Positions 1,873 to 11,295 of a stretch of DNA of 13,418 bases are shown here, in pieces (within the stretch, counting starts at the first letter, position 1; each line of letters opens with the position of its first letter). The DNA is from an archaeon. Its GTDB lineage: Archaea > Iainarchaeota > Iainarchaeia > Iainarchaeales > Iainarchaeaceae. The DNA is taken from contig DATDXA010000052.1 of NCBI GenBank assembly GCA_035289485.1, positions 1 through 13,418 on the forward strand, read 5' to 3'. A program made the position numbers and the translations under genes. A model generated the notes under the pieces. The model searched no databases, was not told where the DNA came from, and saw only the letters and a program-made list of their open reading frames with translations.

Positions 1873-2991
1873 CTACGACAGATAAGAGTTAATCGCCCCC
1901 ATCAATTTTTTCTGCTTATCCAAGCCGATGAATCCGATTCGCTCATAAAATTTTATGAGGTTTTGTTTTCCGCTTATTTTTAATTCATAGTATTTTTCCT
2001 TGTAAGGGCCATGAAATTTGCATTCAATCTCAAAACACTTCAGCAGCTCAATCAATTCGAGCACGCCGTTCTTGTTTATCAGCATCATGCTTATCACTCG
2101 GTCTAGGTTTTTTCCATGAGGACTGAACACGACACTTCCCTCATCATCAAAGAAAGCCCGAAGGTAGCTAGCCTTGGCATTAGCATCCCCTGTTTTGACA
2201 AAATATGGAACTTCCCAGTCTATTGAGTAAAACTTTATGCCTCGAAGGAATTTTTTGACGCCTTTATTTGCAAACCCGGCACAATAAAGCCCTGGTTGCT
2301 TACAAGTCCGCCAAGGCTTTACTTTAAACAATTTCAGTGCAACATCAGAAAACTCGAATATTAAATGCAAATTCTGATTAGCGTAGGAAAATGTATTGGT
2401 ATTTTTGGGCTGGCAACCGTCCGCCTGCACATGCGCAATGAATTTTGCCAAGTTTTCACAAAAACCCGCACCGGCCTGATGTTCTATCGGATAATATTCT
2501 TCGACGGACTTCACACGAATTTTTTCTTTTGGCTGTTTCAGAAAGGTATGTATTATTCCATTTCTAATATCAGTTCTGTGTAAATTTTTGACACGCTTTA
2601 TTTCCCTTATTCTGGCGAAATAAGTAGCCCTTTCATCAATCAGGCTGGATGCCGCAAATCCGCCTTTTCTTGCACCCCAATTCAGCGGCATCTCTTTTTC
2701 TATGAATTTCTTAAATTCATTCGCGCTTTCATCGACAGATATGAGTTTTTGGAAAGTTGACAATCTGATATTGTTCTTTTCTGAAAAATAATCTCTCGCA
2801 GTGGTTTTTGAAACCTTGATTAGCCGCCCGAATGCAGTAATGCCAAGTGAGTGTCTCTGCATAAAATTTGCCAACAGTTCCCTCTGCTTCCCTTTCTGGA
2901 AAACGAGCCTTTTGTCCTCTATTCTCCCACCACAACAAGAACGGTTTTCCGGCTTAAAAGGAAACTGGGGGAGTTCGGTGCCGGTGCGCAT
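1873..2991 (-). CDS. Free-standing two-motif LAGLIDADG endonuclease-family protein with N-terminal HTH
   Basis: LAGLIDADG helices LAKFIAHVQADG and YLRAFFDDEGSV, C-terminal 'Y.LKISG..NL..FYE.IGF...KQ.KL' signature, and an N-terminal XRE-like HTH (GITAFGRLIKVSKTTARDY). No intein splice motifs. Start uncertain: GTG 3003, ATG 2991 (TAATG overlap) or ATA 2922. Confidence 0.88.
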   Translation of the reverse strand: MRTGTELPQFPFKPENRSCCGGRIEDKRLVFQKGKQRELLANFMQRHSLGITAFGRLIKVSKTTARDYFSEKNNIRLSTFQKLISVDESANEFKKFIEKEMPLNWGARKGGFAASSLIDERATYFARIREIKRVKNLHRTDIRNGIIHTFLKQPKEKIRVKSVEEYYPIEHQAGAGFCENLAKFIAHVQADGCQPKNTNTFSYANQNLHLIFEFSDVALKLFKVKPWRTCKQPGLYCAGFANKGVKKFLRGIKFYSIDWEVPYFVKTGDANAKASYLRAFFDDEGSVVFSPHGKNLDRVISMMLINKNGVLELIELLKCFEIECKFHGPYKEKYYELKISGKQNLIKFYERIGFIGLDKQKKLMGAINSYLS

Positions 2992-3140
2992 TAAAACCAC
3001 CACGCGAAAGAAATTCCTAGGAAAAAGCCGATTGTGCAGTTGAGAACAAAATCGGCTTGCTTTGGAAAACCAAAGAATTCCAGAATCGCAACGGAGTAAA
3101 TAATTCCTGCTCCAAGCAAAATGATTGAGAGAGGATTCAT
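2991..3140 (-). CDS. Small 49-aa two-TM membrane protein (not in ORF track)
   Basis: MNPLSIILLGAGIIYSVAILEFFGFPKQADFVLNCTIGFFLGISFAWWF*. GGAGG SD upstream, ATGA overlap with the upstream ORF, TAATG overlap with the LAGLIDADG ORF. Confidence 0.6.
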   Translation of the reverse strand: MNPLSIILLGAGIIYSVAILEFFGFPKQADFVLNCTIGFFLGISFAWWF

Positions 3141-3241
3141 TTTGAATCCTCCTTCATGTTCGCGAGTATTTGTGCGAATGTCCTGCCTTCTGCAAAAGGG
3201 CTTCCCCTCTGCGTTACTTTAGTTTGATAATGAAAACTCAT
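3137..3241 (-). CDS. Small 34-aa leader ORF (not in ORF track)
   Basis: MSFHYQTKVTQRGSPFAEGRTFAQILANMKEDSK*. Strong SD GGAGGTGA (3254-3247) just upstream of ATG 3241. Its stop overlaps the next ATG. Confidence 0.5.
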   Translation of the reverse strand: MSFHYQTKVTQRGSPFAEGRTFAQILANMKEDSK

Positions 3242-3481
3242 TCCAATCACCTCCAGCGCGGAAAACGAGTTTTTCCTAAAAAAAGCCGGTTACGGGCTTT
3301 GGGCGTATTAAATCCCTACAGCCCAAGCGACCCTTCCCAAGAAGGGGAAGGGTTTAAACGCACAAAGACCGAGGCTTTTGGAAAAACTCGGGGCTGGAGG
3401 TGGAAGGAGTTTCCATAGTTTAATGACCGGCACCTTAATAGAACCAAAAACCTATTTAATCGGAAGAATTACAATGGTTAC

Positions 3482-4360
3482 ATGTTCTCTGTTTGTGTGC
3501 CCGTTTATAGGGAGGAGGGCGCAATGCGCTTCATTGCGGATGAAATAAGAAAACAAGGCATCTGGAAGGAAAACAAGGACAAGGAACTCATCTTCTGCAT
3601 AAATGGAACAGGGGAACCTGGTTATGACAACAGCGTCAAGATTGCTGAAGAATTAGCTAAGGAGGATCCGGCCATTAAGGTCATCACACTTCAAGAAAAA
3701 GGAAAAAACTACGCTTGCAATGAATTGGTAAGAAGAAGCCGCAAAGACTCTGAAGTGCTGTTTTTCATCGATGCCGATGTAAAGTTAAGAGAAGGAACAT
3801 TAGATGCACTTAACAGAGCCCTTATTGGAAACCCTAGGCTTGCGGCAGCCGGAGCCATATCAGTTTTTGCAAAAGAGCCTACAAAAAAACATGAGTTTCT
3901 GAAAAGGCGCATTATGGATTCCAAGAATGATCCGGCTAGCTCGACACAGAGGGTAATAAACGGCAGATGTTATGCAATCAGGAAAAGCGAGGCAGAAAAA
4001 ATAAGAATGCCAAAGGACCAGCGAATCCATGAAGACGATTTTTTAACCCTAAAATTATGGGACAGGTTCAGGGTAGTCAAGGAAGCGGTTGTTTATTCCC
4101 ATGCCCCGAATGTGGCAGACGCCCTTAGACTCCAGAGAAGAACAGAAGTGTCAAGCACCCTGCTTAGAAGAAATTATCCTAAACTAGCCCCAATACTTGA
4201 TGGCCTCATAAGCACACCCGTGCCGTTCAAAGGAAGACAAATAAGACGGGTTATGAAAACTGGAGTAAGTATGTTCAGGAAAGTTTCAGGGAAAGTGGCG
4301 TTAATGCATGGTGTTGATACCTGGCCGAAAATGAAATCCACAAAACGCCCGTGGAAATAA
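3482..4360 (+). CDS. Glycosyltransferase family 2 (GT-A fold)
   Basis: N-terminal SVCVPVYRE, 'GKNYACN', DxD motif FFIDADV, and downstream 'GRCYAIRK' and 'HEDDFL'. TATA-like TATTTAAT at 3453-3460. Confidence 0.88.
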   Translation: MFSVCVPVYREEGAMRFIADEIRKQGIWKENKDKELIFCINGTGEPGYDNSVKIAEELAKEDPAIKVITLQEKGKNYACNELVRRSRKDSEVLFFIDADVKLREGTLDALNRALIGNPRLAAAGAISVFAKEPTKKHEFLKRRIMDSKNDPASSTQRVINGRCYAIRKSEAEKIRMPKDQRIHEDDFLTLKLWDRFRVVKEAVVYSHAPNVADALRLQRRTEVSSTLLRRNYPKLAPILDGLISTPVPFKGRQIRRVMKTGVSMFRKVSGKVALMHGVDTWPKMKSTKRPWK

Positions 4361-10074: not shown

Positions 10075-11295
10075 TTAGCTTTTTATGCCGAAAACCCTGC
10101 CATTTCGCCATCCAATTCGCTTTACTTCAACTAGCCCCAACTCAAGAAGACCCTTTATTCGTCTACCTTGAAGGTTATACCCAATCAGTTGGTCTCTTAA
10201 GTTTCCGGTTCCGATGTTAAGCAGGTACCCAAGTTCTTTTATCGTAAGATCCTGTTTTCTAAGAAGCTTCAGAATTTCTGCTTTTGTATGCCCTCGGTGG
10301 CGGTTATACCATTTTCTATTTTTTAGAGTGAAATGTTTCAAAAAAGCCGCCTGCTTTGAAGGAATGACAAAATCGCCCATGTCTTCTTTTATCATATCAA
10401 AACTTTTAACGGAAATAATTGCTGACTTTTTGTAATTCTGGACTTGGTAACCAAGTTTTTTGCACAACCTACGAGACACCTCGGTAAGACATGATTTTGG
10501 CGAGAATAATATTTCGATTCCACCATCGCCTATCCTACCTTCGTCTATAATTATCGCCTTTAACAATTCAACAAGAAATGGCCTAGGGTAAGAAAATATT
10601 TGTTCTGGGAAAACTACTTTTCCAGTCCTGAAATCCAGTATTTGAAAATATTTTTTTAGTATTTTTGGGACAATTTTTGCAACAATTACCCTCCAATGCT
10701 TTTTCAAAATTGAGTGGTCTACATCCCCAAAAGACACTTTCAATTTTACAATGAAATTATCCATTGCCTCAGGACTTTTACTTATATAGCATGCATTTCC
10801 CTTCTCCCCACCATAGCCGTCAGATAAAAAATGCGCCAATACTGCAAACGTTTCGGGAATTATCTGCAAGGGCAATTGCGGTTTTATTATTATTCCGGCT
10901 CTTGAACTAGCCTTGATTTCTTGAACCTGATTTTGCAAGGAATTTATTTCCAAACCGAGTGCATAACAGAGTTTCTTTAAGCTAGTAATATGAATGAACC
11001 GATTTACTTTACCGTGCTTTTTCAGTTCAAAACCATTTTTCCACGAATATAAGCTGCTGCCCTTGATTTTGAGCTCTTTTCTAGCTAATCCAAGAGAGCC
11101 ATATTTTTCTTCCAATTGTGAAAAGATAATTTTTCTGGCATTTTTTTCAAGAAGAATGCAAGTATCTTCAGGAAAATCTGATAAGTTCAAATAATACAAT
11201 TCCCCACCATCACAAAAGTTGTTCTTGACAATATATTGCTCTTTGCAGGGAGTGCACTGCCGGTGCGAACCTGAAGAAGAGAGGCGATGCATCAT
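10075..11295 (-). CDS. Free-standing two-motif LAGLIDADG endonuclease-family protein with N-terminal HTH and C-terminal wHTH
   Basis: LAGLIDADG helices VLAHFLSDG and LLKAIIIDEGRI, N-terminal HTH (YGSLGLARKELKIKGSSLYSWKNG), and C-terminal ArsR-like wHTH (EILKLL...LTIKELGYLLNI....LR..L...L.ELGLVE). Start is ATG 11295 (ATGA overlap) or TTG 11199. Confidence 0.82.
   Translation of the reverse strand: MMHRLSSSGSHRQCTPCKEQYIVKNNFCDGGELYYLNLSDFPEDTCILLEKNARKIIFSQLEEKYGSLGLARKELKIKGSSLYSWKNGFELKKHGKVNRFIHITSLKKLCYALGLEINSLQNQVQEIKASSRAGIIIKPQLPLQIIPETFAVLAHFLSDGYGGEKGNACYISKSPEAMDNFIVKLKVSFGDVDHSILKKHWRVIVAKIVPKILKKYFQILDFRTGKVVFPEQIFSYPRPFLVELLKAIIIDEGRIGDGGIEILFSPKSCLTEVSRRLCKKLGYQVQNYKKSAIISVKSFDMIKEDMGDFVIPSKQAAFLKHFTLKNRKWYNRHRGHTKAEILKLLRKQDLTIKELGYLLNIGTGNLRDQLIGYNLQGRRIKGLLELGLVEVKRIGWRNGRVFGIKS

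Follow-up and report, generated by a model that had tools for sequence, protein, structure and literature searches.

Background

In phage T4, homing endonuclease genes such as I-TevI and mobE carry hairpins that sequester their ribosome binding sites (RBS). Another way of tying translation to RNA context is found in both archaea and bacteria, where stop-start overlaps between neighbouring genes couple their translation by termination-reinitiation, as described by Huber et al. (2019, PMC6728339). The present paper concerns the region upstream of a gene for a LAGLIDADG endonuclease with a helix-turn-helix (HTH) domain, located on a 13,418-nt stretch of archaeal DNA (contig DATDXA010000052.1, hereafter the window). 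Two small open reading frames, ORF1 and ORF2, lead into this gene through stop-start overlaps, with a hairpin at the first junction. ORF1 and its overlap with the next start are conserved among relatives, and ORF2 occupies a 137-nt insertion present in this species.

A preliminary description of the locus, made from the window alone, had interpreted both ORFs as hidden leaders relaying ribosomes to the nuclease gene, resulting in its multi-layer repression. The window is contig C52 of G000, a 1.16-Mb genome that is assembled in 64 contigs and 90% complete; we compared it with 23 genomes from its family and 196 from its order. The nearest named homologue comes from "Candidatus Diapherotrites archaeon". 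The sequencing runs examined over the window provided DNA contigs only. All coordinates of the relay (Shine-Dalgarno sequences, ORF1, ORF2, nuclease frame) refer to the minus strand.

Results

Anatomy of the proposed relay

ORF1 is preceded by a Shine-Dalgarno sequence (SD), GGAGGTGA, at 3254-3247; the motif GGAGGTG stands 12-16 nt upstream of the start codon in every copy listed. The frame itself runs from ATG at 3241 to TGA at 3139-3137 and encodes 34 amino acids (aa), or 37 aa if the in-frame GTG at 3250 is taken as the start. Its stop codon overlaps the ATG of ORF2 (3140-3138) in the sequence ATGA (3140-3137). ORF2 (3140-2991, TAA at 2993-2991) encodes a hydrophobic product of 49 aa beginning with MNPL. 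Its stop in turn overlaps an ATG (2991-2989) lying in the frame of the nuclease, the shared sequence being TAATG (2993-2989), and the long HTH-LAGLIDADG frame counted from this ATG (2991-1873) has 372 aa. Co-directional genes with stop-start overlaps of 4 nt or 1 nt, the arrangement typical of coupling, are thus found at both junctions.

The first junction is covered by the hairpin GAGGATTCA-AAA-TGAATCCTC (3151-3131), whose stable 9-bp stem encloses both the second SD, as GGAGG, and the final UG of the start codon, as RBS-sequestering structures do. The hairpin is a part of the minimum-free-energy fold of 3290-2960 (-102 kcal/mol, z-score -2.66; 2 of 100 shuffled sequences fold as well).

Every element named in the preliminary description, from the first SD through both ORFs and overlaps to the LAGLIDADG frame and the 9-bp hairpin, was located in the sequence as claimed, and the fold places the second SD with its ATG in the stem, as had been proposed. 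ORF2 can hardly be called hidden, however, for its exact 49-aa product has already been called as a gene on eight public contigs. The further claim that the first SD lies in the stem of a long hairpin holds only for the first two G, which pair in the outer stem. Because the 5' arm of this outer stem (3289-3285) is situated at or ahead of the predicted transcription start, this part of the description is weak.

Conservation of the stop-start overlap and of the hairpin

The stop codon of ORF1 overlaps the next start codon in all 18 complete copies of the gene: by ATGA in 13, GTGA/TGATG in one, TTGA in one, and with a -1 overlap in three. Since every complete ORF1 homologue ends in this manner, the arrangement goes beyond chance. 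Cargo coupled to ORF1 varies. It may be a gene for a 66-67-aa protein followed, with a -4 overlap, by a gene with ArdC-N and M78-peptidase domains; an ArdC-like gene directly; or the HTH-LAGLIDADG gene. In five loci of relatives (L052, L044, L054, L053 and L058) the module heads an operon of ORF1, the 66-67-aa protein (MKVKEI...) and the ArdC-N + M78-peptidase protein, all joined by ATGA overlaps. This composition points to an integrated mobile element. Downstream of the nuclease gene in the window no remainder of an ArdC gene was found; a tRNA gene stands there instead.

A hairpin over SD and AUG folds at each of the 12 junctions whose coupled start reads MNP or MSP (-11.0 to -23.3 kcal/mol). 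Three of these junctions have the unrelated 66-67-aa gene upstream. In an alignment of the hairpins 90.7% of cells are paired, compared with 44-68% when the partner strand is slid, and three of the nine pairs are changed on both sides. These figures give suggestive support to the hairpin being a functional structure that the ribosome opens.

Past the first three or four codons (MNP or MNPL), with which the ArdC-like gene of sister modules begins as well, the frame of the nuclease begins. In all seven ORF1-linked nuclease copies without an insertion, the frame entered at the coupled start stays open and leads into the gene body without a shift, although these copies read the promoter element described below in different frames. 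Selection therefore seems to act on an unbroken reading from the coupled start, with the reservation that the copies compared are related.

ORF2 and the 137-nt insertion

The closest homologue of the nuclease, 67% identical, lies on contig G004:C30 and adjoins the orthologous tRNA gene. Here ORF1, ATGA and the same hairpin are followed by MNPL-C-RTGNEPP directly into the nuclease gene. In alignment to this contig the window holds 137 extra bases between ATGAATCCTCTCT and GCGCACCGGCA, a T-rich segment (40% T) at 3127-2991 with borders ambiguous by a few bases. The segment is absent in four relatives from three genera (G004:C30, G021:C9, G016:C13 with MNPCTGTEP, and G004:C19), in which only 11-19 nt separate the coupled start from the following conserved word, against 154 nt in the window. 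Contigs of three sequencing runs span the insertion without differences, and no joint lacking it was seen among them. A metagenome scan for intermediate forms returned only two contigs, both identical to the window over this region. The insertion is fixed in this species and, as far as the compared genomes tell, specific to it.

No homologue of ORF2 was detected in the 196 genomes of the order (best non-self expectation value (E) 0.005), and a Pfam search gave nothing usable. The 137-nt segment has no second copy in G000 (next best match E 0.15), and in the 23 family genomes no match extended over the 137-nt part of the query. A miniature inverted repeat transposable element or an insertion sequence was considered as its source and rejected, as the segment is not multi-copy in either G000 or the family. 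An archaeal bulge-helix-bulge intron was rejected too, the motif being missing at the borders.

From base composition we estimate a chance of about 12% that such a segment stays open for the 49 codons of ORF2, whose hydrophobicity follows from the 40% T, which yields hydrophobic codons. Judged by these comparisons, ORF2 is the insertion read in the ancestral coupled frame and not a conserved leader. The preliminary description had named conservation of the overlaps in homologous loci as a test of its cascade. The outcome is divided: the ORF1 overlap is kept throughout, whereas ORF2 and TAATG are confined to this species and absent from homologous loci, so that the cascade of two leader ORFs fails the test. 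The broader proposal, that nuclease synthesis depends on a relay through leader ORFs, fares similarly, with the conserved ORF1 overlap (18/18) and hairpin (12/12) speaking for it and the species-specific ORF2 step against.

The nuclease gene and its start codon

Pfam recognizes LAGLIDADG_3 (PF14528) in the nuclease with 30.9 bits (cut-off 22.5). Its translation contains the motifs ...VQADG... and ...FFDDEG..., the two motif helices with terminal acidic residues expected of a LAGLIDADG endonuclease; these residues would be the catalytic ones. Matches were found in 20 of 61 related genomes, in G004 at the same place beside the same tRNA gene. Comparison with the G004:C30 copy gives 0.21 differences per nonsynonymous site (pN) and 0.77 per synonymous site (pS).

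Public records place the start of the gene differently: at 2991 (P0001, 372 aa) according to non-NCBI gene callers and at 2862 (329 aa) according to NCBI. Neither is the start conserved in relatives, which corresponds to the codon before the conserved word EDKRL. This codon is ATG in G004:C30, G021:C9 and G003:C21, TTG in G016:C13 and GTG in G004:C19; in the window it is ATA at 2922, behind the SD-like sequence GGTGGGAGA (2931-2923; the whole site 2931-2920). The preliminary description had reckoned with a nuclease start at 2922 behind a promoter of its own as the counter-case to the relay. The position indeed fits the start of the relatives; the codon does not. Translation from 2862 would probably not yield the conserved protein, because the 20 residues it would lose (2922-2862) include invariant alignment columns and because pN is low relative to pS. 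Two routes would then remain: ATA 2922 on transcripts from the downstream promoter P2, and ATG 2991 reached by relay on transcripts from the upstream promoter P1. The latter predicts the N-terminus MRTGTEL and the peptide TGTELPQFPFKPENR.

A second LAGLIDADG-like gene of the window (10075-11295) has an analogous head at 11480-11195 (minus strand) with a TTTAAT box and GGAGGTG. Its 42-aa ORF (11420-11292) is different and ends in a TGATG overlap; the same promoter element follows, within a P2-type site at 11266-11230, then GGTGGGGAA and TTG. The frame from the coupled start is likewise open and in frame.

Putative promoter P2 and its gene class

Just past the insertion lies the element GCACCGGCACCGAACTC (2987-2971), a type with 27 sites in G000, followed 28 nt after its start by the TATA-like box TTTTAAG (2959-2953). 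Together they probably form a promoter of the nuclease gene itself, P2. The word GCACCGGCA with the subsequent CCGAAC is translated as TG, PA or HR in different nuclease copies. As the copies read it in three different frames, it must be conserved as DNA and not as protein.

The core of the element has 35 exact matches in G000, and in 23 of them a TATA-like box follows at +25 to +31. When one mismatch was allowed and a TATA-like box required, 40 sites were obtained, at 18 of which an ORF of at least 60 aa begins +52 to +58 after the element. Such spacing is expected for leaderless or near-leaderless messages. The 27 sites share the consensus GCACCGGCACCGAAC..C, then TTTAAA about 8 nt later, and a fixed distance between element, TATA-like box and gene start recurs at many genes. 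Among the genes behind P2-type sites are those for NurA, a Hef-type helicase-nuclease, UvrB, a DHH/RecJ-like protein, an intein-bearing MCM, PIN and several LAGLIDADG proteins. The core with a TATA-like box is present in 21 of the 23 family genomes; the reversed control pattern is present in none.

The P2 element may mark a regulon of replication and repair genes. Membership is not uniform, as the patchy occurrence upstream of uvrB in six genomes indicates: the exact element is found only in G000, a one-mismatch form in G003 and G006, and none in G001, G002 and G018. A literature search, which was thin, found no description of the element. A further upstream word, TTTGCCATACTTG, is common to a subset of P2-type sites (G000:C27:301, C29:30244, C34:6884, C43:14402 and C24:12886) and suggests a subclass or the end of a duplicated cassette.

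ORF1 and its head module

ORF1 is a real gene of an unannotated family of small proteins of 33-35 aa. It evolves under purifying selection (median ratio of nonsynonymous to synonymous substitution rates, dN/dS, 0.31 in 92 pairs), and the entropy of its third codon positions is 1.27 versus 0.81 and 0.71 at the others. The family consensus reads MSFHYQTKVSQRGNPFxEGxTFAxxLxxMKRxxx. A profile search detected three copies in G000 and, among 1.84 billion proteins, 25 cluster representatives at E<=0.001, mostly 32-56 aa long. No Pfam or PHROG family matched ORF1, and the ESM Atlas gave nothing usable for it.

ORF1 belongs to a larger conserved module. The stretch 3405-3168 has two further copies in G000, on C34 (88.8%, 241 nt) and at the end of C20 (82.1%, 168 nt), and is found in 13 of the 23 family genomes and 12 of the 196 order genomes. 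All copies combine the 33-35-aa ORF with a TTTAAT box, the word AAAAACTCGTTT and GGAGGTG. Public contigs are 4-5 times deeper over 3213-3400 than over the flanks, and end there. The TATA-like box TTTAATA (3312-3306), within the motif GGATTTAAT(A/G)C that most copies keep some 55-60 nt upstream of the SD, presumably represents the promoter of the ORF1 transcript (P1), with a start near 3285-3281. The palindrome GGAAAAACTCGTTTTCC (3276-3260) folds into a 6-bp hairpin of the 5' untranslated region (5'UTR), and its core, AAAAACTCGTTT, is nearly invariant among the copies compared. An inverted copy, CCGAGTTTTTCC, of the 5'UTR word GGAAAAACTCGG lies at 3391-3380, in a region conserved in the paralogue on G000:C34 and in relatives. 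The word GGAAAAACTCG(G) thus occurs on either side of the P1 box, once in inverted orientation (3391-3380 and 3276-3260), at a distance of about 105 nt, and the pair looks like operator sites of an autoregulated promoter.

Positions 3405-3215 of the window and G000:C34:7182-6990 are nearly identical through the promoter, 5'UTR and first nine codons of ORF1. Past codon 9 the two copies diverge sharply, and all synonymous ORF1 sites differ between them. Such a pattern points to a breakpoint within ORF1, left by gene conversion or recombination. Decayed modules were seen at L042 (G005:C17) and L046 (G002:C2): in one of these, beside tRNA genes, ORF1 is cut after 15 codons, and in the other it has a 1-nt deletion.

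Genomic neighbourhood

On one side of the nuclease gene lies a glycosyltransferase gene on the plus strand (3482-4360), and on the other a tRNA gene with an intron (1767-1867, also plus strand). The latter was detected by Rfam and missed by ARAGORN. About 27 nt of it are absent from the orthologous tRNA gene of G004:C30 and resemble an intron whose gain or loss took place inside the genus. Rfam reported two tRNAs in the whole window and no known RNA family within 2991-3480.

Discussion

An old control module and a young insertion

The 5' control region of the HTH-LAGLIDADG gene is best understood as two layers of different age, and we consider it probable that an old, conserved coupling module has here received a species-specific insertion, the relay through ORF2 being a lineage-specific patch. 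In the old layer, a P1 box between two palindromic words and a strong SD would drive expression of the ORF1 protein gene. The SD and AUG of the next cistron would be shut in the hairpin until a ribosome terminating on ORF1 opens it and reinitiates. In relatives the coupled cistron is either an ArdC-like operon or the nuclease itself, which then gains a short in-frame extension at its N-terminus.

The young layer would have arisen when 137 T-rich nucleotides entered behind the fourth codon of the coupled cistron and disrupted its frame. ORF2 is, in this reconstruction, the part left open. Because the ORF2 stop overlaps an ATG newly present in the nuclease frame, the flow of ribosomes from ORF1 could still reach the nuclease. 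P2, directly downstream of ORF2 and of a class common to replication and repair genes, would provide the second route. As the codon used behind P2 by relatives has become ATA here, the relay through ORF1 and ORF2 may be the main route to the full-length protein. Most likely, the relay is such a patch and was not designed as multi-layer repression. The comparisons establish how the locus is built, how far it is conserved, that ORF1 is coding and that the 137 nt were inserted, whereas the two promoters, the act of coupling and any use made of the relay are predictions from sequence.

Several observations weigh against this reconstruction. At the site of the insertion, contig G018:C25 has another T-rich segment, of 118 nt, that offers no in-frame restart, and it keeps a leaderless start of the P2 type; with their link broken, members of the family can evidently do without coupling. 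(Similarity between the two insertions is not significant, as 46 of 500 shuffled sequences scored as high.) The SD ahead of ATG 2991 is weak (GGTGG). ATA is a listed start codon of translation table 11 and NCBI chooses ATG 2862, so P2 alone may suffice. The covariation score of the hairpin was equalled in 23 of 500 shuffles and its number of doubly changed pairs in 102 of 500; moreover, the stem overlaps two coding frames, which constrain it too. Finally, the module and nuclease copies compared are mutually related, and their counts overstate independence.

Alternative explanations

The main rival to the relay is that it is unused and the nuclease is made from P2 transcripts only, starting at ATA 2922 or ATG 2862, with ORF2 a by-product or untranslated. 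We regard this as a substantial possibility, although not the probable one. It accords with the conserved architecture of P2, the survival of G018:C25 with a broken link, the NCBI start and the derivation of ORF2 hydrophobicity from base composition. Yet the canonical start behind P2 has been lost, the 2862 start drops alignment-invariant residues, and the exact in-frame restart at TAATG would have to be a coincidence. Another account is that of the preliminary description, in which ORF1 and ORF2 are both dedicated leaders and the multi-layer repression has evolved as such. The hairpin and the two overlaps do exist, the ORF1 coupling is conserved, and ORF2 stays open for 49 codons (about 12% by chance) to end exactly on an in-frame ATG. 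This account is nevertheless unlikely: ORF2 with its TAATG overlap occurs in this species only, relatives use one relay step instead of two, and the nuclease gene has a predicted promoter of its own.

Two further readings take the inserted segment as something other than a remnant of an open frame. ORF2 might be a true gene of a small membrane protein, such as a hydrophobic peptide resembling a toxin, and have been inserted as a gene. Its two hydrophobic stretches with a polar loop between them would suit such a product, gene callers report it, and no polymorphism was seen in three runs. We hold this to be very improbable, given that ORF2 has no homologue in 196 genomes, no other copy in its own genome, and no start of its own, using instead the ancestral MNPL start and SD. 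Alternatively, the 137 nt could be removed from the RNA as a bulge-helix-bulge intron or bypassed by the ribosome, giving the ancestral MNPL-...TGTE protein. Deleting 137 nt would restore the frame of G004:C30, and the neighbouring tRNA gene may have gained an intron in this lineage. At the borders of the insertion, however, there is no bulge-helix-bulge motif (two 3-nt bulges, 4-bp helix). The best candidate lies inside the insertion, spans 106 nt, does not restore the frame and scores 9, compared with a mean of 5.4 and maximum of 11 in 200 shuffles. No matched take-off and landing codons were seen for a bypass, and the length of the G018:C25 insertion would not restore the frame there. Removal or bypass is thus the least credible of the explanations considered, to the point of being nearly negligible.

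Significance

The locus would offer a clean natural example of coupling kept through a disruptive insertion, with the incoming frame open and a stop-start overlap to the outgoing frame at its end. It also defines an unannotated 33-35-aa gene family heading ArdC-like and nuclease operons in uncultured archaea of the DPANN group, and it draws attention to a nuclease start annotated in two ways in public records. The promoter element common to replication, repair and LAGLIDADG genes makes regulation testable in an uncultured lineage. A wider reading that joins these observations is doubtful as a whole: ORF1 would be a regulatory leader peptide gating the cargo of mobile modules, either in cis through the ribosome or in trans through the P1 palindromes; LAGLIDADG genes would share the GCACCGGCACCGAAC regulon with MCM, UvrB, Hef, NurA and RecJ-like genes; and the window copy, having lost its start, would live on a relay ORF born from the insertion. 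If so, DNA cutting would be timed to repair capacity.

Comparison with known systems

As in the T4 genes I-TevI and mobE, a hairpin covers the SD and start of a nuclease cistron, whose translation would require the structure to be opened. The host here is an archaeon, and the proposed opener is an upstream terminating ribosome instead of a differently started transcript. Unlike its T4 counterparts, the hairpin also precedes ArdC-like genes and so is not specific to nucleases. With the termination-reinitiation pairs of Huber et al. (PMC6728339), the locus shares co-directional genes, overlaps of -4 or -1, and a downstream SD inside the upstream gene. It differs from the pairs described there in that a 34-codon upstream ORF heads variable cargo and the start is sequestered by a hairpin, and in that the predicted link runs, in this genome, through a second ORF born from an insertion. 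The predicted mechanism is therefore of a known kind, combining overlap coupling with an RBS-sequestering hairpin. What is new is the family of small genes heading the modules, the second relay step created by an insertion, and the promoter element that links the nuclease with replication and repair genes.

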